Origin: Patescibacteria group bacterium
Lineage (GTDB): Bacteria > Patescibacteriota > Patescibacteriia > UBA2591 > UBA6264
Length of the DNA: 32,000 nucleotides
Reading direction: 5' to 3'
Assembly: GCA_028713575.1 (NCBI GenBank)
Contig: JAQTOB010000001.1
Span: 30,001-62,000, forward strand
Shown here: piece by piece, positions 5,273-30,150 of the stretch
How the letters are laid out: each line of letters begins with the position of its first letter
How positions within the stretch are numbered: position 1 is the stretch's first letter
Program-made: the position numbers and the translations under genes
Notes under the pieces: generated by a model
The model's input: only the letters and a program-made list of their open reading frames with translations
What the model was told of the DNA's origin: nothing
Databases searched by the model: none

Positions 5273-5292
5273 ATCAATATAATTGAGAGAGG

Positions 5293-5365
5293 GGCCAGGT
5301 AGCCAAGTGGCAAAGGCAAGGGTCTGCAAAACCCTTATACAGGGGTTCGATTCCCCTCCTGGCCT
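5293..5365 (+). tRNA. tRNA-Cys (GCA)
   Basis: Acceptor stem ggccagg/cctggcc. Anticodon arm AGGGT-CTGCAAA-ACCCT. T-arm has 'GGTTCGATTCC'. CCA is not encoded. Confidence 0.9.
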
Positions 5366-5431
5366 TTTCCAATTTTCTCTAAAATTGTGAGCCAACAAAG
5401 ACAAAACAATTTTAGTAAGAAAGTTGAGAAC

Positions 5432-5565
5432 CCCGCCCTTATTTTACCTTTTTGAAGATAAATATCGCTAATTTTGATTTATTGTTTTAACGCTCGCAGT
5501 GCAGTAAGGTCCTTGACGAAATTAAAATGCATTGCCTCACATTATCTTGTAAAGTAAGGCGGGGC
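5432..5565. other. Long imperfect hairpin (~134 nt): candidate structured ncRNA or MITE-like palindromic element
   Basis: Three nested complementary segments. (1) ccccgcccttattttac (5432-5448) pairs with gtaaagtaaggcgggg (5550-5565), 16 bp with one bulge and one G.U. (2) aagataa pairs with ttatctt. (3) attttgattt pairs with aaattaaaat. No ORF is present. Confidence 0.4.
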
Positions 5566-5631
5566 GTTGTGTTTAACACAACTAAAAATAGAAAGGCAAC
5601 CCACGCTCTAATTTTACGGATTAAAACAAGG

Positions 5632-5677
5632 GCGGCAAACTCGCCTTTGGCGAGGTCCTATTCGGACACTTTGCCGC
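5632..5677. repeat. GC-rich three-helix element (member of the GC-rich hairpin family)
   Basis: The outer helix gcggcaaa/tttgccgc encloses hairpins ctcgcc-ttt-ggcgag and gtcc-tattc-ggac. It shares 'cgcctttggcg' and 'gaggtcc' with the insert in the pseudo-tRNA-Glu (21136-21186). Confidence 0.45.
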
Positions 5678-5792
5678 AAAAGTAAAAAAAGAAAAAATTA
5701 TTTAAAAATAAATATATAAATGGTAAAATTAGAGCGGGGTGCTCATAAATCTAACAAATTTTTATTCACTTCGTTCTAAAAATTTGAGATTT

Positions 5793-6899: not shown

Positions 6900-7961
6900 A
6901 TGATTATTTTTCTTTACGGAAAAGACGCTTATCGTTCCAAGCAAAGACTAAATGTCTTAAGGGAAGAATTTATGAGGAAAAAAGACAAAAAGGGTCTAAA
7001 TGTTTGTATTTTTGAAGCCCATGAATTATCTCTTGATGAGTTGAGAAAATCCTTTTTAAGCGCTGGTCTTTTCTCAGAAAAAAGACTGATGATTATAAAA
7101 AATATCTTATTGGCAAAAACGGCAAAAAAAGATGGGGAAAGTCGCCCCGTCCCGTCCCCTCTGCAAACAGGTGGCAACCCGCCGGAAAGGCAAAAAATTC
7201 TGTTTGAAGAAATTATTAAAATTTTAAAAAAAAACAAAAAAGATGAAGATTTCCCCGCACAGACAAAAAATGTCATTATTTTTTGGGACGAAGAGGTTAA
7301 TGAAAAAAAATTAAATTCTTTTCAAAAAAAAATATTTATTCTTTTAAAAAAAGAGAGGTTTTGTGAAGAATTCAAATTATTAAATGCCGTTGAATTAAAA
7401 AAATGGATTAAAAAAAGAGTTAATAATCAAGGTTTTAAAATTGACGAACAATCTTTAACGCTATTAATTAACGCTTTTGGCAATAATCTTTGGCTGTTAA
7501 ATAATGAGTTGGAAAAGCTAATGGCCTGGAAAATAACAAAAAAAGAAATTGTTTTTTCTGACCTGCAAAAATTTGTTTTCCCCGGACTGGAACAAAATAT
7601 TTGGAAACTGGTTGATTCTTTGGGTCAAAAAAATAAGGCCCTGGCTTTAAAAATTCTTTCAGACCAATTTAAACAAAATGTTGATGTAGCTCAAGTTATT
7701 ACCCTTCTTGCTCATCAATATAGAACAATTATCAGAATAAAATCTTATTTAGAAAAAAATCCAATAAATAATCCTTATCAGTTGGCTAAAATCTTGTCTC
7801 TTCATCCCTTTGTGTGCCAAAAAGCTGTGGCTCAAGAAAAAAATTACAACCTTAATCAATTAAAAAAGACCTATCAGCAATTACTGAAAATAGATCTTTG
7901 GCGGAAAACTAAGAATATTGACTCGGAAACTCTTTTAGATTTGTTAATTGCCAAATCCTGA
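6900..7961 (+). CDS. holA: DNA polymerase III delta subunit
   Basis: The N-terminus 'MIIFLYGKDAYRSKQRLNVLREEF' and 'LFSEKRLMIIKN' are typical of HolA, and the length fits. Contains a GC-rich in-frame island at 7131-7191. Confidence 0.75.
   Translation: MIIFLYGKDAYRSKQRLNVLREEFMRKKDKKGLNVCIFEAHELSLDELRKSFLSAGLFSEKRLMIIKNILLAKTAKKDGESRPVPSPLQTGGNPPERQKILFEEIIKILKKNKKDEDFPAQTKNVIIFWDEEVNEKKLNSFQKKIFILLKKERFCEEFKLLNAVELKKWIKKRVNNQGFKIDEQSLTLLINAFGNNLWLLNNELEKLMAWKITKKEIVFSDLQKFVFPGLEQNIWKLVDSLGQKNKALALKILSDQFKQNVDVAQVITLLAHQYRTIIRIKSYLEKNPINNPYQLAKILSLHPFVCQKAVAQEKNYNLNQLKKTYQQLLKIDLWRKTKNIDSETLLDLLIAKS
7131..7191 (+). repeat. GC-rich in-frame island inside holA
   Basis: 'gatggggaaagtcgccccgtcccgtcccctctgcaaacaggtggcaacccgccggaaaggc' sits in otherwise A/T-rich coding sequence. 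It encodes 'DGESRPVPSPLQTGGNPPERQ'. Confidence 0.5.
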
Positions 7962-19782: not shown

Positions 19783-20475
19783 TTATAACAACTTAAAATT
19801 ATTGATTATTAAATTAAATTTATAACCTAAAAAATCAGCAGCCTGACGACAATAGGTCATTCTCTCGGTAAATATCTCAAAATATTCCATAATCGGGACA
19901 TATTTACGATCTATTTTAATGGTCAAAATAATTTGTTTTTTTTGCCGATTAACTTTTAAGTCCGATTTGGTGGCGGCATAGTTTACCCTATCATGAATAT
20001 CGGTTTTAAGTTCATTTTTTGACAAATCTCTAACTCTTGAACGATTAACATCTGACTTATCAGCAATAACCACAATGGCGGAAATTGGATTTGTTAATTT
20101 CATGGTATATTTATCATGATTGACGATTGCCTGCATGATGTGACTTAATTCCTTGGAAGAAAAATTTTCTTCCCCGCCGGAGGTGAATCCGCCTTTAGTG
20201 GAAAAAATCTGATGGAACAAAAGCGCGCCCCAATAATGATGACGTGAACGGCCTAAAAAATTTCCCATATCATGACAAAATCCGGCGATAGCAGATATCT
20301 CCTGTCCTCTTTTACTTAATCCTATTTCTTTAGCCATCATTTGAGCTCGACGGGAAACTAAATTAGCATGTCTTAAGCCATGTTCCGTATAACCTAAAGC
20401 ATCCATTGAAATTTCAGTTTGTCTAATAAATTCCAAAACCTGAGGATGATTTTTTACTTCTTTAAATTTTAACAT
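19783..20475 (-). CDS. HD-domain phosphohydrolase (230 aa)
   Basis: 'HGLRHANLVSRRA...GFCHDMGN' provides the H...HD motif. Specificity is unknown. Confidence 0.65.
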   Translation of the reverse strand: MLKFKEVKNHPQVLEFIRQTEISMDALGYTEHGLRHANLVSRRAQMMAKEIGLSKRGQEISAIAGFCHDMGNFLGRSRHHYWGALLFHQIFSTKGGFTSGGEENFSSKELSHIMQAIVNHDKYTMKLTNPISAIVVIADKSDVNRSRVRDLSKNELKTDIHDRVNYAATKSDLKVNRQKKQIILTIKIDRKYVPIMEYFEIFTERMTYCRQAADFLGYKFNLIINNFKLL

Positions 20476-20784: not shown

Positions 20785-20856
20785 TAGCCCCGAGGAGAAT
20801 CGAACTCCTGTTACCAGGATGAAAACCTGGTGTCCTAACCACTAGACGACGGGGCC
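20785..20856 (-). tRNA. tRNA-Glu (UUC), intact
   Basis: The minus-strand sequence is ggccccgtcgtctagtggttaggacaccaggttttcatcctggtaacaggagttcgattctcctcggggcta. The anticodon arm is ccagg-TTTTCAT-cctgg and the T-arm contains GTTCGATTC. The G1:U72 end pair is slightly atypical. No CCA is encoded. Confidence 0.9.
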
Positions 20857-20862
20857 TTAATA

Positions 20863-21117
20863 TTATTTCAAATTGAATCCTAACTTATTAAGCAAATTTT
20901 TTCTTTCTTGATAATATTTTTTTAACCTTATTTCCCTTTTCCTTGCTTCTGATTTACTATCATACTCCTCCCTATACATCATAATAAACGGTCTTCTGTT
21001 TTTATTGGATTTTGTTTTGCCGGCGTTATGCTCTTTTAATCTTTTTCCAATGTCATCAGTCATACCAATATAATAACCTGAATCCTTTAAACTTTTTAGG
21101 ATATATAAATAATACAT
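20863..21117 (-). CDS. Small GIY-YIG (URI-domain) nuclease family protein (84 aa)
   Basis: 'MYYLYILKSLKDSGYYIGMTDDIGKRLKEHNAG...RPF...YREEY.SKSEARKREIRLKK' matches the GIY-YIG pattern (YxYIL...YIG...R...H...E). Start at ATG 21117. The 30 codons upstream in the track ORF merely read through tRNA-derived and GC-insert sequence. Confidence 0.8.
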   Translation of the reverse strand: MYYLYILKSLKDSGYYIGMTDDIGKRLKEHNAGKTKSNKNRRPFIMMYREEYDSKSEARKREIRLKKYYQERKNLLNKLGFNLK

Positions 21118-21221
21118 ACTCCTGTTACCAGGATGCCCGCCAGGGGCAGCCTGTCCGCCTACTGGCGGAGGTCCGCCTTTGGCGGAAAAACCTGGTGTCC
21201 TAACCACTAGACGACGGGGCC
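21118..21221 (-). pseudogene. Truncated tRNA-Glu(UUC) copy (nt 1-53) interrupted in the anticodon loop by a 51-nt insert
   Basis: 21187-21221 and 21118-21135 are identical to tRNA-Glu positions 1-35 and 36-53 of the intact copy. The T-arm and 3' acceptor strand are absent. Homology stops exactly at the ATG of the GIY-YIG ORF. Confidence 0.8.
21136..21186 (-). repeat. 51-nt GC-rich triple-hairpin insert between anticodon positions 35 and 36
   Basis: The minus-strand sequence is tCCGCCaaaGGCGGaCCTCCGCCagtaGGCGGAcAGGctGCCCctggcGGG(C). It forms three consecutive GC hairpins. It shares 'cgcctttggcg'/'gaggtcc' with 5640-5658 and 'gcctgtccg' with valS 28889-28897. Confidence 0.6.
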
Positions 21222-21271
21222 AAAAATAAGAATCATTCTAACAGTTAAATATTCTAACATTTTAACAGAAT

Positions 21272-21299
21272 TTGTCAAAGTAAAAAAATCTGTTAAAAT
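21272..21299 (+). promoter_or_regulatory. Putative promoter for tsaD
   Basis: TTGTCA (21272-21277), 16-nt spacer, TAAAAT (21294-21299), about 10 nt before the ATG region. Confidence 0.3.
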
Positions 21300-25435: not shown

Positions 25436-25532
25436 TAGTCGATATTCGACTACTTTTTAAAAATTGTCTTACAACCCGCTTCTAGTAATGATTTTAGAAT
25501 GGTATTTTTAGGGGACAGTCCCCTTTTTATAA
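25436..25532 (+). repeat. 97-nt hairpin-containing repeat, copy 1
   Basis: Contains the palindromes gtcga-tat-tcgac and aggggac-a-gtcccct. It is 95/97 identical to 26769-26865. Confidence 0.85.
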
Positions 25533-25590: not shown

Positions 25591-26553
25591 TTATTTCAAA
25601 TAGTGATTCAAATTAATCTCAACAAAAAAATATTTTTCTCCTCTTTTTGCAAGAAAAAATAAAATTCCATTTTTATCGAGTTCAATTGGATAAGCAAAAA
25701 TCGCACAACAGCTGTTAGTTCTTATTTCATCAAAATCCCGAGAAATTTTTTGACCATTAAAGAAAAAAAATTTTTTTTCATCTTTTTCACCTACGAATCC
25801 TATATTGTCTTTATATGCAAATAAATGTGAACTTGCTTCAACTAAATATTTCTCATTGATCGTTTCATCATTATACCAAATATTTCGCTCCACAATTGGC
25901 GTATTCTTATCCTTCCACTCCTTGAGATCGTAAAAAGTGAATGCGGGTGAATTTAGTATCATGCTTGCATCTTCAATAACACTTTCCGCTCCGAAATACA
26001 TTTTATGGGAAAAAATTTCTTGCTCATTTTTAAAAATAGAATAATTGTCGTCGCCTTTGATGTTTCCAATAGTATAAACGTCCTTACTAAAACCATAAGA
26101 TTCTGCTGTTTGTTTAATATTAATATTATTTATTAAATCTTTTCTAAATTCAGGGTTAATTATTAAACACCAATTATCTGGACCACATTCAGCCACTTTA
26201 AATTCCGGTGGTAGATTATTTTTATATGCTTGCAAGCCAACTATTGAACAATTATCTTTTGTGCCATTTCTACATTCAATTTTGTATTGCAAGTGATACA
26301 TTGGCGTTCGTCCCTGGATTTCATGATTTTGGTTATACCAAAAATTTTTTCCTTGTTTTTGAAGTCGGGTTATTTCTTTTCTGATTAGTGTGAAAATATC
26401 ATCAACGGTTTCACTTGTAAGAGTTGTTTCTATTTCATGGTAAATTTGAGATTGGCTATCAACGGGAATTTTATTTTCCCTGTTTTCAATTTGAGAGGTC
26501 GTGCACCCCGCTAAAAAAAATCCCATTATCAGTAGAAAAAAATATTTCTCCAT
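25591..26553 (-). CDS. Hypothetical lipoprotein (320 aa)
   Basis: The signal peptide has the lipobox 'FFLAGC'. No recognisable domain. The gene is bracketed by the two 97-nt direct repeats. Confidence 0.6.
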   Translation of the reverse strand: MEKYFFLLIMGFFLAGCTTSQIENRENKIPVDSQSQIYHEIETTLTSETVDDIFTLIRKEITRLQKQGKNFWYNQNHEIQGRTPMYHLQYKIECRNGTKDNCSIVGLQAYKNNLPPEFKVAECGPDNWCLIINPEFRKDLINNINIKQTAESYGFSKDVYTIGNIKGDDNYSIFKNEQEIFSHKMYFGAESVIEDASMILNSPAFTFYDLKEWKDKNTPIVERNIWYNDETINEKYLVEASSHLFAYKDNIGFVGEKDEKKFFFFNGQKISRDFDEIRTNSCCAIFAYPIELDKNGILFFLAKRGEKYFFVEINLNHYLK

Positions 26554-26768: not shown

Positions 26769-26865
26769 TAGTCGATATTCGACTATTTTTTAAAAATTGT
26801 CTTACAACCCGCTTCTAGTAATGATTTTAGGATGGTATTTTTAGGGGACAGTCCCCTTTTTATAA
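26769..26865 (+). repeat. 97-nt hairpin-containing repeat, copy 2 (direct orientation)
   Basis: Two mismatches relative to 25436-25532. Confidence 0.85.
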
Positions 26866-27555: not shown

Positions 27556-30150
27556 ATGGATAAACAATACGAGCCAAAAAATTGCGAAACGAAAATTTAC
27601 GAACTCTGGGAAAAGAGCGGATTTTTTAATCCAGACCGACTACCGGGCAAAAGAAGAAAAAAATATTCTATTTCCATCCCTCCGCCCAACATCACCGGTT
27701 CCCTGCATATGGGACACGCCCTGAATAACACAATTCAGGACATTTTAACCCGCTACTACCGCCTGCGGGGCAAAAAAACTCTTTGGTTGCCGGGAATTGA
27801 TCATGCCGGCATTGCCACCCAAAACGTGGTAGAAAAGAAAATCTCTAAAGAAGGATTGACTCGCCATCAACTCGGCCGAGATAAATTTATAGAAAGAGTC
27901 TGGCAGTGGAAGGAAAAATATGGCAACCTAATCTTAGAACAATTAAAAAAACTTGGTTGTTCCTGTGATTGGTCTCGGAGTAGATTCACCTTGGACAAAG
28001 AATACGAACAGGCCGTACAAACCGCTTTTATCAATTATTACAAAAAAGGCTACATCTACCGGGGTCCTCGGATCGTCAACTGGTGTCCCCGTTGCGCCAC
28101 GGCTATCTCCGACATTGAAGTGAAATACCAAGAAGAAAAAGGTGCCTTGTGGTATATTAAATACCCGTTGCTTGAAAATTCCAAATTCCAATTTCCAAAT
28201 TCCAAACAATATCTAAATTCAAAACCTAAAATCCAAAAATTTATTACGGTAGCGACTACTCGACCAGAAACAATGCTGGGAGATGCGGCCGTGGCCGTGA
28301 ATCCCAAGGAAGAAAGATATAAAAAGTTAGTCGGCCAAAAAGTTATCTTGCCAATAATGAACCGCGAGATTCCTATTGTCGCCCATCGTTTAGTTGATCT
28401 TAATTTTGGCACTGGCGCCTTAAAAATCACGCCAGCTCATGATAAAACCGACTGGCAGATTGGCAAAGAAAATAATCTAGAAATAATCAATGTTATTGGT
28501 CCTGACGGAAAAATGTCAAAAGAGGCGGGAAAATATGAAGGCCTCTCAACTCTTGAGGCCAGAAAAAAAATCATCGCCGAACTGGAAATCTTGGGTCTTT
28601 TGGAAAAAACCGAAGAATACGAGCATCAAATCTCCCTGTGTGATCGCTGTCATACTCCAGTCGAACCGCAAATTTCTACCCAATGGTTCGTTCAAATGGA
28701 AAAATTAGCCCAACCGGCGATTAAAGCGGTTAAAAACAATAAAATAAAAATTATTCCCGAACGATATAAAAAGGTATATCTTGATTGGTTAAATAACATT
28801 GAAGATTGGTGCATTTCTCGCCAGCTCTGGTGGGGACACCGTTTGCCAATTTGGCTCTGCCAAACAGCAAACAAAATTAAAAATCCCTGCCTGTCCGGCA
28901 GGCAGGAAAAATTAAAAATCAAAAACATTAATAACGATTATGTTGTTTCGGCGACTCGACCAAAAAAATGCCCATTCTGCGGACAATGCGAGATGAAACA
29001 ATCGGAGGACGTATTAGACACCTGGTTTTCTTCTGCTCTTTGGCCATTCGCTACTTTGGGCTGGCCAATCGCTTGCGCTCAAAATAAAAAATCAAAAATA
29101 AAAATTAAAAAATATTGTAAACCAATTCGCGGTACCGATTTAGACAAATTTTTTCCGACTTCTCTTTTATCCACCGACCGCGGAATCCTTTATCTTTGGG
29201 TGGCGAGAATGGTTTTCTCAAGTTTGGAATTTTTAAAAAAAATACCCTTTAAAACCGTTTACATTCACGCCACTATTCTCAATCCGGAGGGCCGACGAAT
29301 GAGTAAGTCGCTGGGAACGGGCATTGACCCCTTGGGCTTAATTGATAAATACGGCGCCGACGCGGTCCGCCTCGGTCTAATAATCCAAACCAACCGCGAC
29401 CAGCAGGCCATCCGCTTTGATGAAAGAACGATTTTGGCGGCCAGAAATTTTGTGAATAAGCTCTGGAACATAAGTCGTTTTATTGAAATTTCAACAAAAC
29501 AAATCCAAGATTCTAAATCAGAAATCCAAAACAAGTCCAAGATTCTAAACTCAAAAATCAAAACATTAACTCTATCGGACAGATGGATACTTAGCCGCTT
29601 AAATTCCGTTATTGATTCAATAACAAAAAAAATCGCCGATTATCAATTCGGCGAAGCGGGGCAAGAACTTTATGAATTTGTTTGGCATGAATTTGCCGAT
29701 TGGTATTTAGAAATCAGTAAATTTCAAATGGCGGAAAAAAAATTAAAAAATAACACCATTTATTGTTTAAAATTTATAATTTATAATTTATTAAAACTCC
29801 TTCATCCTTTTATTCCTTTTGTCACTGAAGAAATCAACATTCATCTTAATAATTTGACCATAGAAAAAAATGGGGTTTTGCCAGAGAAAGCAATGGAACA
29901 ATTTAGTCAGTTATTGATAGTGGCAAACTGGTCCGCCGTGAAAAGAAAATACATAAATAAAAAGATTGAATCTCAATTTGAGAAAATAAAAAAAATTGTG
30001 GCTGAAATCAGGAACTGGAAATCAGAACAGAAAATTCCTTTTAATCAGGAAGTGGAATACCAAATTCAAAAAGAAGAAAAAAATCTTTTAATCATTAAAG
30101 AGGTAAAAACCCTGGTAGAACAAATGACCAAAACAAAATTGATTTCTTAA
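27556..30150 (+). CDS. valS: Valyl-tRNA synthetase
   Basis: The HIGH-type motif is 'PPPNITGSLHMGHAL'. 'TTRPETMLGD', 'WCISRQLWWGHRLP' and the KMSKS motif 'RMSKSLG' are present. Start at ATG 27556. Confidence 0.9.
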   Translation: MDKQYEPKNCETKIYELWEKSGFFNPDRLPGKRRKKYSISIPPPNITGSLHMGHALNNTIQDILTRYYRLRGKKTLWLPGIDHAGIATQNVVEKKISKEGLTRHQLGRDKFIERVWQWKEKYGNLILEQLKKLGCSCDWSRSRFTLDKEYEQAVQTAFINYYKKGYIYRGPRIVNWCPRCATAISDIEVKYQEEKGALWYIKYPLLENSKFQFPNSKQYLNSKPKIQKFITVATTRPETMLGDAAVAVNPKEERYKKLVGQKVILPIMNREIPIVAHRLVDLNFGTGALKITPAHDKTDWQIGKENNLEIINVIGPDGKMSKEAGKYEGLSTLEARKKIIAELEILGLLEKTEEYEHQISLCDRCHTPVEPQISTQWFVQMEKLAQPAIKAVKNNKIKIIPERYKKVYLDWLNNIEDWCISRQLWWGHRLPIWLCQTANKIKNPCLSGRQEKLKIKNINNDYVVSATRPKKCPFCGQCEMKQSEDVLDTWFSSALWPFATLGWPIACAQNKKSKIKIKKYCKPIRGTDLDKFFPTSLLSTDRGILYLWVARMVFSSLEFLKKIPFKTVYIHATILNPEGRRMSKSLGTGIDPLGLIDKYGADAVRLGLIIQTNRDQQAIRFDERTILAARNFVNKLWNISRFIEISTKQIQDSKSEIQNKSKILNSKIKTLTLSDRWILSRLNSVIDSITKKIADYQFGEAGQELYEFVWHEFADWYLEISKFQMAEKKLKNNTIYCLKFIIYNLLKLLHPFIPFVTEEINIHLNNLTIEKNGVLPEKAMEQFSQLLIVANWSAVKRKYINKKIESQFEKIKKIVAEIRNWKSEQKIPFNQEVEYQIQKEEKNLLIIKEVKTLVEQMTKTKLIS
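28873..28920 (+). repeat. 21-nt GC-rich palindrome flanked by a 13-nt direct repeat, inside valS
   Basis: The layout is aaaattaaaaatc | cctgcctg-tccgg-caggcagg | a | aaaattaaaaatc. It encodes '...KIKNPCLSGRQEKLKIKN...'. Confidence 0.7.

Follow-up and report, generated by a model that had tools for sequence, protein, structure and literature searches.

Rickettsia palindromic elements (RPEs) are about 100–150 bp long, are known only from Rickettsia and form sequence families of their own. They are selfish palindromes whose host has a reduced, AT-rich genome; they stand in frame in its protein genes, and also in its RNA genes, and the peptide that they add is tolerated. The double-hairpin element (DHE) was reportedly defined by Paquin et al. 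in 2000; we know of no established partner nuclease for the DHEs of fungal mitochondria. The Allomyces atp6 GIY-YIG ORF is a mobile endonuclease ORF that rebuilds its target gene by duplication, and the distance from cleavage site to insertion site is 23–25 nt for the endonuclease I-TevI. GIY-YIG proteins of the UPF0213/YhbQ type are very widespread and structures have been solved, and to our knowledge no role has been established for them. The term double-hairpin element is in use in the literature (PMC10085805, PMC2800124), and a GIY-YIG homing endonuclease, SegB, is encoded in a tRNA gene cluster of T4 (PMC2330249).

The locus described here has features in common with each of these systems. 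It lies in a 32,000-nt stretch of DNA (referred to as the window) from a Patescibacteria group bacterium (contig JAQTOB010000001.1, positions 30,001–62,000). On the minus strand of the window, a truncated copy of tRNA-Glu is split between anticodon nucleotides 35 and 36 (35|36) by a GC-rich insert of exactly 51 nt (21136–21186), as delimited by reading of the sequence, folding and a model match. We consider it reasonably probable that this sequence acts as the double-hairpin cis-element in a selfish cassette that lives in tRNA genes.

The insert is composite, consisting of TCCGCC-AAA-GGCGGA, CC, TCCGCC-AGTA-GGCGGA and CAGGCTGCCCCTGGCGGG, and folds at −34.7 kcal/mol. Upstream of it is a promoter-like site (21251–21278, minus strand; TTGACA-16 nt-TAGAAT preceded by TG, 11 of 12 consensus matches). 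Given that no equally good site was found from there down to the intact tRNA-Glu gene, the site is likely, judged by its sequence, to be the start of a transcript shared by the pseudo-tRNA, the ORF and tRNA-Glu. Nucleotides 1–35 of the pseudo-tRNA (21187–21221, minus strand) match the intact gene without a difference (a perfect 35-nt repeat of 20822–20856) and include the acceptor 5′ strand, the D-arm, the anticodon-stem 5′ strand and the first two anticodon bases. Nucleotides 36–52 (catcctggtaacaggag, 21119–21135, minus strand, from reading of the sequence) follow the insert. Because this stub retains the anticodon-stem 3′ strand, the anticodon stem and the two hairpins together make a closed three-way junction, and the centroid fold preserves the anticodon stem around the insert. 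The stub also provides an AGGAG immediately 5′ of the ATG of an 84-aa ORF (20863–21117, minus strand), which encodes a single-domain GIY-YIG protein of the UPF0213 type. The intact tRNA-Glu(UUC) gene (20785–20856, minus strand; detected by ARAGORN, and by Rfam as tRNA with 65.4 bits) begins 6 nt past the ORF stop codon. Rfam, at gathering thresholds and at E-value thresholds around the two RNA-like islands of the window (this insert and an intergenic one described below), returned the two tRNAs and nothing else. There is also an annotation error at this locus: a GTG located upstream, at 21207, resulted in a spurious 114-aa gene call across the pseudo-tRNA.

The locus is polymorphic among close relatives. 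An assembly that is 99.5% identical (L001) has a 30-nt form where the window has the 51-nt form, and the public version of that assembly contains a 100-N gap exactly at the double-hairpin element. In a related species (L002), the 51-nt form is present and is 96% identical to the insert in the window. The CATCCTG that follows the insert is kept in most of the tRNA-Glu modules examined, with diverged variants in its place in some (CAAGC in L201, CAATGCGG in L010).

The position in the anticodon loop, with the anticodon stem extended as a hairpin, might suggest that the insert is an intron, or the place where the halves of a split tRNA meet, and is removed to yield a functional tRNA-Glu. The arrangement in L002, in which the 51-nt insert stands between the 5′ and 3′ parts of tRNA-Glu, could be read in the same way, except that the 3′ part there has an additional insert in the T-loop. 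In the window, the copy ends at nucleotide 52 and lacks the 3′ half of the T-arm and the acceptor 3′ strand, an intact tRNA-Glu follows 260 nt downstream, and neither ARAGORN nor Rfam calls a tRNA at the broken copy. Further, group I introns are far longer than 51 nt and none is detected by Rfam, and (from reading the sequence) the 35|36 position and the junction geometry give no bulge-helix-bulge motif. We therefore rejected this explanation, which is close to refuted.

The protein encoded by the adjacent ORF belongs to the UPF0213 (YhbQ-like) branch of the GIY-YIG nuclease superfamily. PF01541 covers residues 1–71 (E 3e-16), the solved UPF0213 structures PDB 1ywl and 1zg2 match with 1.8e-9 and 8.2e-9, respectively, and there is a weak, distant match to the structure-specific nuclease SLX1. 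Residues Y5, G18, R26, H30, N31 and E62 do not vary across 28 homologs, and the conservation of Y16 among them is 90% or higher. From established knowledge of the fold, we take the conserved Tyr residues of GIY and YIG, together with the Arg, His and Glu, to be catalytic. The domain fills residues 1–71 of only 84, leaving no separate DNA-binding domain, such as gives Seg proteins and I-TevI a long recognition site. It is therefore not obvious that this protein could home in a sequence-specific manner.

The arrangement is not peculiar to the window. Five independent homologs (64%–79% identical) show the same order of pseudo-tRNA-Glu, insert at 35|36 and ORF, followed 4–8 nt downstream by an intact tRNA-Glu (UUC or CUC), and the module occurs in unrelated neighborhoods. 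We also evaluated 80 metagenome loci that were chosen by protein homology, using a narrow protein alignment as the query. A tRNA adjoins the ORF in 48 of the 80, and in 31 of these 48 it is tRNA-Glu (the others are Arg, Pro, Ala, Val, Ser, Gly and more). In 41 of the 80, a segment of the adjacent tRNA is duplicated over 14 nt or more. In 43 of 78 loci a double hairpin ends 12–95 nt (mostly 13–30 nt) upstream of the ORF start; the finder used is sequence independent, and gave 72 matches in 200 kb versus none in shuffled loci. A detectable double hairpin or tRNA is missing from 37 of the 80 loci, some of which are cut by contig ends.

Variation among the modules is informative. In a Ser-CGA module (L055) the insert is in the D-loop; in a Ser-UGA module (L049) it is at 35|36 and accompanied by a nested twin, in which a TCCGCC..GGATCC..GGCGGA unit lies within the second hairpin of another unit; and a Val-GAC module (L080) has reversed polarity, with the hairpin downstream of the ORF. 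Some of the change is recent. One locus (L006) equals another (L007) plus one exact extra unit of 340 bp, with flanks that are 100% identical. L005 matches L002 through tRNA nucleotide 35 and then continues into a second unit that bears a 30-nt hairpin. It is possible that the 51-nt form in the window, compared with the 30-nt form in L001, is a further nested twin. In general, the pseudo-tRNA copies gather several different GC hairpins, in D-, anticodon- and T-loops. In the literature searched on GIY-YIG and tRNA, palindromic elements and UPF0213, we found no description of the hairpin element, of the module or of their pairing, and a literature search with the literal element sequences returned cloning primers alone.

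The hairpins themselves appear to be maintained. Among 30 inserts at 35|36, 356 of 360 stem positions pair, whereas shuffled versions average 280 and never exceed 302. The stems come in versions such as TCAGCC/GGCTGA, TCACCC/GGGTGA, CCACGC/GCGTGG and TCCTCC/GGAGGA. Stems were parsed by anchoring, and the formal count was made on a gapless subset, in which 99.6% of the cells pair and both partners have changed in seven of the 12 pairs. The covariation score of 0.42 (versus 0.10 in shuffles) was reached by none of 500 shuffles. Comparison of the inserts thus indicates that the stems are selected as two 6-bp hairpins. The recurrence of the same 35|36 position in diverged modules, combined with compensatory changes in the stems, argues that the insert is a selected part of the module rather than a random landing.

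Covariation of this kind does not distinguish a role at the DNA level from one at the RNA level, and its compatibility with an RNA helix brings in an explanation that we judge rather unlikely. The double hairpin, closed by the anticodon stem, could act solely in RNA, as a 5′-UTR structure of the nuclease mRNA and tRNA-Glu precursor affecting stability, translation or processing, with the solo copies described below being a separate matter. The sole strong promoter is upstream of the pseudo-tRNA, the order and orientation of the hairpins are constant, 12–30 nt ahead of the start codon, and in L006 the ATG lies within the anticodon stem. In the window, an alternative hairpin (UCCUGG-UAAC-CAGGA) would sequester the AGGAG. 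Such a role would account neither for reversed-polarity modules such as L080, in which the hairpin is downstream of the ORF, nor for the spread of the 30-nt sequence across phyla, on both strands, in different frames and in intergenic DNA.

The CCGCC variant of the double hairpin also exists as a solo element of exactly 30 nt, (TCCGCC-N3-GGCGGA)x2, although the invariance of the CCGCC stems in solo copies is partly imposed by the search pattern. A scan of representative genomes located it in at least 118 loci from many phyla. Among the matches listed, 117 of 124 sites (94%) have, out of eight allowed spacings, the one that makes the element exactly 30 nt long. The solo copies are found in intergenic DNA, on both strands and in three reading frames. 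Within ORFs of at least 200 aa, 54 of 66 copies are in the S-A-x-G-G frame, giving the product S-A-x-G-G-S-A-x-G-G, and there is no frame bias in short-ORF contexts (both among the matches listed). The host genes include DnaK, DnaJ, DnaG, UvrA, DnaE, RpoC and PheT. A GIY-YIG gene is located within about 8 kb of only eight of the 118 solo-copy loci (among the matches listed), and the double hairpin is rare in viral collections (six loci). The window holds a probable decayed copy that the first-pass annotation, made from the letters of the window, had overlooked (TCCACTAAAGGCGGATTCACCTCCGGCGGG, 20173–20202, minus strand; borderline model match of 12.2 bits, E 0.15). It encodes S-T-K-G-G-F-T-S-G-G within a 230-aa HD-type protein, and the resulting insertion of ~10 aa is common to L002 and missing from 14 more distant homologs.

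That annotation had likened the GC-rich hairpins to RPEs and proposed a genome scan for further copies. The copies exist, at the 118 or more loci noted above, and so do in-frame insertions and insertions into RNA-gene copies (the tRNA-gene hosts are all pseudo-copies); the likeness does not extend to size, sequence or host. A rival view is that the insert is an autonomous RPE-like repeat that happened to land in a dead tRNA-Glu copy, with the nuclease gene unrelated to it. The solo copies in many genes and intergenic sites with no nuclease gene nearby point in this direction, and the varied GC hairpins in pseudo-tRNA loops resemble what would gather in neutral landing pads. Nevertheless, the exact 35|36 site and the compensatory drift indicate descent with selection inside a module rather than repeated landings, and more than half of the protein-selected loci have an upstream double hairpin, when shuffled loci have none. 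Overall, we consider a chance association with an independent repeat to be unlikely, and prefer the view that the insert belongs to the nuclease cassette.

The insert was originally noted as one of at least four GC-rich islands, for which a common origin was suggested. All four were confirmed: the tRNA insert, an intergenic island (5632–5677), and islands in frame in holA (7131–7191) and valS (28886–28906). The intergenic one had been placed next to tRNA-Cys (5292–5366), from which it is actually separated by 266 nt, on the downstream side. The islands are less conspicuous than was implied, given that a simple scan of the window picks out 31 stretches in which GC reaches 70% or more over 24 nt, and the majority are ordinary, conserved coding sequence. 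Clear hairpins, as described, are found in three islands (z −4.6 for the tRNA insert, −4.6 for 5632 and −5.35 for valS), and the holA hairpins are indeed weak (z −0.05, not significant). Chance levels for the shared words were obtained from composition-matched shuffles of the islands. CGCCTTTGGCG occurs in the window only at 5642 and 21174 (an 11-mer was reached in one of 1000 shuffles), GAGGTCC only at 5652 and 21168, and GCCTGTCCG only at 21149 and 28889 (a 9-mer was reached in 17 of 1000). The shared CCCGCC is real but uninformative, with 10 occurrences in the window over both strands, and what holA has in common with the other islands does not exceed chance.

A single family for all four islands was rejected based on a model scan and BLAST on 1.14 Mb of related loci. 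The covariance model (R1) combined solo copies with the inserts at 35|36, and in the window its only significant match is the tRNA insert (25.9 bits, E 6e-5). The 5632 island scored 9.2 bits (E 0.8, not significant), and holA and valS gave no match. The 5632 island comprises a double hairpin (CTCGCC-TTT-GGCGAG and GTCC-TATTC-GGAC) with an 8-bp closing stem, and has one hairpin unit in common with the focal insert (p about 0.001); it is possibly a diverged relative. It sits in a lineage-specific region of about 380 nt that is strongly structured; relatives have only about 30–115 nt at this place, and the region contains inverted repeats (z −6.1 for the 361-nt fold). A decayed GIY-YIG gene was sought in the extra DNA after tRNA-Cys and not found.

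The valS island (28886–28906, plus strand; CCTGCCTG-TCCGG-CAGGCAGG) represents a second hairpin family, here as a solo copy, and encodes P-C-L-S-G-R-Q. As the suggested ortholog alignments verified for valS and holA, the segment is a lineage-specific insertion. The seven residues are present in the window and one homolog (P0057), and not in another (P0058) nor in most other aligned homologs. The loop of ValRS that holds them is hypervariable, and in another lineage (P0076) the same loop contains a canonical solo copy of the 30-nt element. Matches to the valS sequence (22–24 nt at ≥95% identity) occur in at least 12 loci. The family in general (CCTGCCTG-N-CAGGCAGG) is represented 15 times in 200 kb of GIY-YIG loci, almost always within a tRNA D-loop; near-identical copies are in the D-loops of pseudo-tRNAs beside GIY-YIG ORFs, and others are in holA of relatives. 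In viral collections, matches to the 16-base pattern of this family about equal the number estimated by chance.

The holA island, in the gene for the delta subunit of DNA pol III, contains a GC-rich in-frame insertion of 48 nt (7137–7184, plus strand; E-S-R-P-V-P-S-P-L-Q-T-G-G-N-P-P). These 16 residues are missing from all 43 aligned homologs, including those that are 70% and 67% identical. BLAST found no relatives of this island in the 1.14 Mb of related loci, and it could be a simple low-complexity expansion.

The abundance of GC-rich coding stretches, and the lack of a significant fold in holA, raise the question of whether the islands are just chance GC stretches, ordinary terminators or conserved codons. 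We regard this as highly improbable, and for the tRNA and valS elements it is refuted. Three of the islands fold at z −4.6 or lower, the double hairpin recurs at 118 loci or more with a single spacing in 94% of the sites listed, and close orthologs differ by indels at the valS and holA segments. With regard to terminators, no T-run occurs 3′ of the hairpins (from reading the sequence), and only the anticodon/T-stem stub was flagged.

Taken as a cassette, the locus consists of a putative promoter, a 5′ tRNA-Glu copy broken at 35|36 by the double hairpin, a stub, the nuclease gene and a complete tRNA-Glu. The nuclease would cut tRNA-Glu genes in or near the anticodon loop, and repair would copy the cassette from the carrier allele. 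Because the cassette carries its own tRNA 5′ part, a working tRNA would be rebuilt and a self-splicing intron would be unnecessary, with the displaced 5′ part remaining as the pseudo-tRNA. The double hairpin would be located at the expected cut, 12–30 nt from the ORF junction, a distance comparable to that between cleavage and insertion for I-TevI. Most likely, it destroys the target site in the pseudo-copy and/or forms a structure through which the nuclease or its mRNA is bound or regulated. The CCGCC version has also spread as a non-autonomous 30-nt element, reaching intergenic DNA and, with the frame kept, essential genes; it was probably mobilized or templated through the action of such nucleases. 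As the regenerated tRNA is itself an intact target, the cassette model leaves immunity unexplained. The tandem units may be a visible consequence of the intact regenerated target, although unequal crossing-over yields the same product.

More tentatively, and with doubts that outweigh our confidence, we suggest that single-domain UPF0213 nucleases and their cognate GC hairpins could constitute an unrecognized class of bacterial mobile element. In this class, the nuclease would read DNA structure (hairpin or cloverleaf extrusion of the tRNA gene, or the double hairpin) instead of a long sequence, home into tRNA genes while rebuilding them and write 30-nt (or 20-nt) hairpin modules into chromosomes in trans. 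If so, essential proteins would tolerate the modules in the form of S-A-x-G-G-S-A-x-G-G linkers as these spread across phyla. The orphan UPF0213/YhbQ family would then have a concrete role, as the nuclease of selfish cassettes that target tRNA genes. In practical terms, the 30-nt element adds lineage-specific segments of 10 residues to DnaK, RpoC, DnaE and aminoacyl-tRNA synthetases in Patescibacteria and other uncultured phyla, which affects ortholog alignment, protein modeling and phylogenomics. The double hairpin is also a cause of assembly breaks, such as the 100-N gap in L001.

Compared with RPEs, the element here is shorter (30 nt, or 51 nt in the window), outside their size range and sequence families. 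It is composed of two 6-bp hairpins, occurs in Patescibacteria and many other phyla, and is physically tied to a cassette of GIY-YIG nuclease and tRNA. A structural parallel is with Allomyces DHEs and yeast GC clusters, which are G+C-rich sequences of 26–79 bp in AT-rich genomes, have two stem-loops whose loops vary more than the stems, show compensatory changes and nested twins and have a distribution that suggests mobility. Two adjacent stem-loops with compensatory changes and variable loops are found here too, as are nested twins (L049). The likeness is one of structure. Fungal DHEs occur in mitochondrial intergenic regions, introns and rRNA variable regions rather than in bacterial housekeeping ORFs. 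REP/RAYT systems (REPtrons) offer the model for mobilization of a non-autonomous hairpin in trans, as they combine dispersed short GC-rich hairpins with a single-copy enzyme gene flanked by them. Yet RAYTs are HUH/Y1 transposases whereas the gene adjacent to our hairpins encodes a GIY-YIG protein, and REPs are extragenic whereas the elements here are also in frame in ORFs and in tRNA-gene copies.

T4 SegB and I-TevI resemble the cassette in having a GIY-YIG domain encoded by a selfish gene beside or within tRNA or essential genes, with cleavage expected tens of bases from the insertion point and co-conversion of the flanks. In the Seg and Tev enzymes a linker and a DNA-binding domain accompany the catalytic domain, which is all that the 84-aa protein here comprises. 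Moreover, there is no intron here; the target is restored by the duplicated part of the tRNA, and the double hairpin marks the broken copy. In this respect, the cassette is like elements that rebuild their targets (the Allomyces atp6 GIY-YIG ORF, and phages and islands that target tRNA genes), which also leave a pseudo-fragment behind. Such elements can be tolerated in an essential gene because they bring a replacement for the segment that they displace. Integrases duplicate the tRNA 3′ end via att sites, whereas here there is no integrase and the duplication mostly involves the 5′ part. The cassette would thus represent a different route into an essential gene, by way of a replacement gene half instead of a self-splicing intron.

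The 51-nt GC insert (21186-21136) lies in a compact arrangement on the minus strand. A strong promoter-like site (TTGACA-16-TAGAAT, 21278-21251) precedes nucleotides 1-35 of a pseudo-tRNA-Glu (21221-21187, identical to the intact gene), followed by the insert, pseudo-tRNA nucleotides 36-52 (21135-21119), an 84-aa GIY-YIG ORF (21117-20863; PF01541, E 3e-16) and, six bases after it, the intact tRNA-Glu(UUC) (20856-20785). This places the insert within the anticodon, at 35|36. The anticodon stem is retained around it, and in the centroid fold the insert is a GC-rich extension on top of that stem. Both ARAGORN and Rfam find two tRNAs in the window, this one and tRNA-Cys (5292-5366, plus strand). 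Compared with solved structures, the ORF matches EF2693 and BH0048, both UPF0213 proteins (E about 1e-9), and, faintly, SLX1, but no others; the expected catalytic residues are invariant among 28 homologs. The start that is conserved among relatives is the ATG (21117); gene callers instead begin at a GTG (21207), and the resulting 114-aa protein (P0001; 20863-21207, minus strand) runs through the hairpin and pseudo-tRNA.

All homologs at 64%-79% identity have the identical layout, with the insert at 35|36 and a tRNA-Glu (UUC or CUC) starting 4-8 nt past the ORF stop, despite different neighborhoods (TsaD/glutaredoxin, Mur ligase/PgpA, adjoining a recombinase, or between a methyltransferase and a helicase). 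Metagenome contigs scanned by protein yielded 436 confirmed relatives, of which 80 loci were kept. A tRNA is adjacent in 48 of the 80; it is Glu in 31 of these and otherwise Arg, Pro, Ala, Val, Ser, Gly, Gln, Thr, or Cys. In 41 of the 80, at least 14 nt of the adjacent tRNA also occur as a duplicate. Modules with other tRNAs occur in both polarities and place the hairpin either at 35|36 or within the D-loop. Extra, different GC hairpins were also seen in the D- and T-loops of pseudo-tRNA copies in a related species (L002, 3255-3295) and in two other loci (L006, 3870-3960; L010, 3830-3940), for example, TCAGGTC-ATCC-GACCTGA followed by GCCCCGAG-TTCAT-CTCGGGGC. Probably, there are hairpin families beyond the two characterized here.

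The 35|36 inserts were gathered from loci picked solely by protein similarity. Thirty of 32 distinct inserts consist of a pair of neighboring 6-bp hairpins, each loop being 3-6 nt long, and the remaining two, from the window and L002, are 51-nt composites. The stems vary by lineage yet stay complementary (TCCGCC/GGCGGA, TCAGCC/GGCTGA, TCACCC/GGGTGA, TCGCCC/GGGCGA, CCACGC/GCGTGG, TCCTCC/GGAGGA), with 356 of 360 stem cells paired (mean 280 and maximum 302 in 2000 shuffles). A gapless alignment of 22 sequences has 99.6% of cells paired and both sides varying in 7 of 12 pairs; its covariation score is 0.42 versus 0.10, and slid registers collapse. A sequence-blind finder detected 72 double hairpins in 200 kb and 0 in shuffled loci, and in 43 of 78 loci the double hairpin ends 12-95 nt (mostly 13-30) upstream of the ORF start. 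Given the stem pairing, covariation, and recurrent position upstream of the ORF, the focal insert belongs to the cassette by descent and is under constraint, rather than having landed there by chance.

Closely similar loci differ at the module, a sign that it changed recently. Contig JAQTSZ010000006.1 (GCA_028711035.1; L001) is 99.5% identical to the window, yet carries a 30-nt form of the hairpin, TCCGCCAAAGGCGGACCCGCCCCTGGCGGG, instead of the 51-nt form. A 100-N scaffold gap (2202-2301), with duplicated sequence on either side, falls exactly inside its double hairpin; evidently, either the hairpin defeated assembly from short reads or the population varies at this point. Over 6.3 kb, L006 and L007 differ by one exact additional 340-bp unit, consisting of hairpin, ORF, and tRNA nucleotides 1-35, and are otherwise 100% identical. 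Similarly, L005 equals L002 as far as tRNA nucleotide 35, beyond which L005 has a 30-nt hairpin and second ORF copy, and L002 has the intact tRNA. Tandem units of this kind may reflect re-targeting of the regenerated tRNA; unequal crossing-over is a possible alternative origin. L002 further retains, upstream, the leftover of an older ORF end and, downstream, a 3' pseudo-tRNA that bears the 51-nt insert again, plus a different double hairpin in the T-loop of this pseudo-tRNA.

Free double hairpins were sought with an exact pattern and eight allowed spacings, using one genome per species, and at least 118 loci were found. Among the matches listed, hosts are Patescibacteria, Omnitrophota, Planctomycetota, Kiritimatiellae, Verrucomicrobiota, Lentisphaerae, Ignavibacteria, Bacteroidota, Dehalococcoidia, and others; one spacing (exactly 30 nt) accounts for 117 of 124 sites, with a central T in 104 of these 117 (giving GGATCC). 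In the same set, 54 of 66 copies within ORFs of at least 200 aa use the frame S-A-x-G-G-S-A-x-G-G, and no frame is preferred among the 23 found in short-ORF contexts. Bona fide host ORFs include DnaK (where the copy equals ten added loop residues relative to E. coli DnaK), DnaJ, an E2 acyltransferase linker, DnaG, UvrA, DnaE, RpoC, HsdR, and PheT. Only 8 of 118 loci among the matches listed have a GIY-YIG gene, about four of them directly adjoining the element, and viral contigs seldom carry the element. Solo hairpins often lie between short repeats, tandem or inverted, with a ∼7-nt period (L093, L097, L098, L099, L116; e.g., AAGATTG AAGATTA on both sides), and may be pieces of larger composite elements or prefer repeat-rich targets. 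The first-pass annotation overlooked a probable decayed in-frame double hairpin in the window (20173-20202, minus strand), which reads TCCACTAAAGGCGGATTCACCTCCGGCGGG and encodes STKGGFTSGG within a 230-aa HD-type protein. It falls in a ∼10-aa insertion common to the window and L002 and missing from 14 more distant homologs, and suggests that old copies erode to ordinary coding sequence.

The insert had initially been grouped, as one hairpin family, with three other GC-rich islands, at 5632-5677, 7131-7191 (in holA), and 28886-28906 (in valS). Inspection of the window confirmed the positions and contexts of all four. However, the window (34% G+C, with proteins closest to those of Patescibacteria/Parcubacteria MAGs) has 31 short GC-rich stretches, mostly ordinary coding sequence, so the islands are not set apart by GC-richness alone. 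Three islands fold far more stably than their shuffles (z -4.6 for both the tRNA insert and the 5632 island, -5.35 for valS), and holA does not (z -0.05). The quoted common words do exist: composition-matched shuffles reached the 11-mer common to the 5632 island and tRNA insert in 1 of 1000 cases and the 9-mer common to the tRNA insert and valS in 17 of 1000. The window contains the holA word, CCCGCC, ten times, and holA shares no words with the other islands above chance in such shuffles. A single family is not upheld: valS belongs to a second family, holA has no significant fold, no match to a covariance model of 35|36 inserts and solo copies, and no relatives in 1.14 Mb of related loci, and the 5632 island matches that model in no more than one common hairpin unit (E 0.8).

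Ortholog alignment agrees with the suspected insertions in both genes. The holA island is a 16-aa (48-nt) insertion missing from 43 of 43 aligned homologs. The valS palindrome encodes PCLSGRQ and sits between cysteine motifs, in a loop that is hypervariable. The window shares it with a 93% identical ValRS, and a 74% homolog and most others aligned lack it; in another lineage the same loop has a canonical double hairpin, read as PPKADPPLAE. The palindrome defines the second family, CCTGCCTG-N-CAGGCAGG, with near-identical copies in D-loops of pseudo-tRNA-Glu and pseudo-tRNA-Arg adjoining GIY-YIG ORFs (15 in 200 kb) and, in the holA of relatives, at a second variable site. At that site (7220-7250) the window encodes DEDFPAQTKN, which may be an eroded hairpin copy; relatives including L132 and L133 have L-P-x-x-Q-A-G from CCTGCC..GGCAGG hairpins. 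Separately, valS residues 507-525 (29065-29121) are a 19-aa AT-rich insertion, PIACAQNKKSKIKIKKYCK, of mosaic distribution, common to the 74% identical ValRS and missing from the 93% identical one; similar A-rich "KIKN" repeats lie beside the valS hairpin.

In the 5632 island, an 8-bp stem closes a double hairpin of 6 bp and 4 bp, the topology being identical to that of the focal element. It lies where tRNA-Cys and a 5'-3' exonuclease gene are about 430 nt apart, versus about 30-115 nt in three relatives. The extra DNA (5405-5765; ∼380 nt missing from the three relatives) folds strongly (z -6.1) and comprises two ∼137-nt units bounded by inverted repeats, CC(C/A)CGC(C/T)CT(T/A)ATTTTAC. It had no Rfam match, and a search for a nuclease remnant found none; candidate identities are a MITE-like pair and a structured RNA of unknown type. 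Elsewhere, a ∼95-nt direct repeat (25438-25530, 26770-26862), ending in the hairpin AGGGGACAGTCCCCT and a T-run, is on both sides of a 320-aa ORF (25591-26553). Upstream of tRNA-Cys in L132 (2880-2960) and L133 (2780-2870), the first 10 tRNA nucleotides (GGCCAGGTAG) are duplicated around a ∼75-nt insert with terminal inverted repeats CCCTCACTTGG/CCAAGTGAGGG, a further small element by which the 5' end of the tRNA is rebuilt.

The best-supported reading is of a selfish cassette of nuclease and tRNA, in whose broken tRNA copy lies a selected double hairpin; in this reading one hairpin variant has also dispersed as a 30-nt non-autonomous element, and a second hairpin family behaves likewise. Judging by anatomy and analogy with I-TevI, Seg endonucleases, and REP/RAYT, the cassette would spread by homing, with a predicted cut in or near the anticodon loop of tRNA-Glu genes; the hairpin might serve target disruption, nuclease binding, or mRNA control, and solo hairpins would be mobilized in trans. 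One weak point is that the regenerated tRNA would again be a target. We found no description of the double-hairpin element or the nuclease-tRNA module in the literature and no Rfam family for the element. The nearest described systems are Rickettsia palindromic elements, fungal mitochondrial double-hairpin elements and GC clusters, REP/RAYT, and the T4 SegB endonuclease, which sits in a tRNA cluster (PMC2330249).
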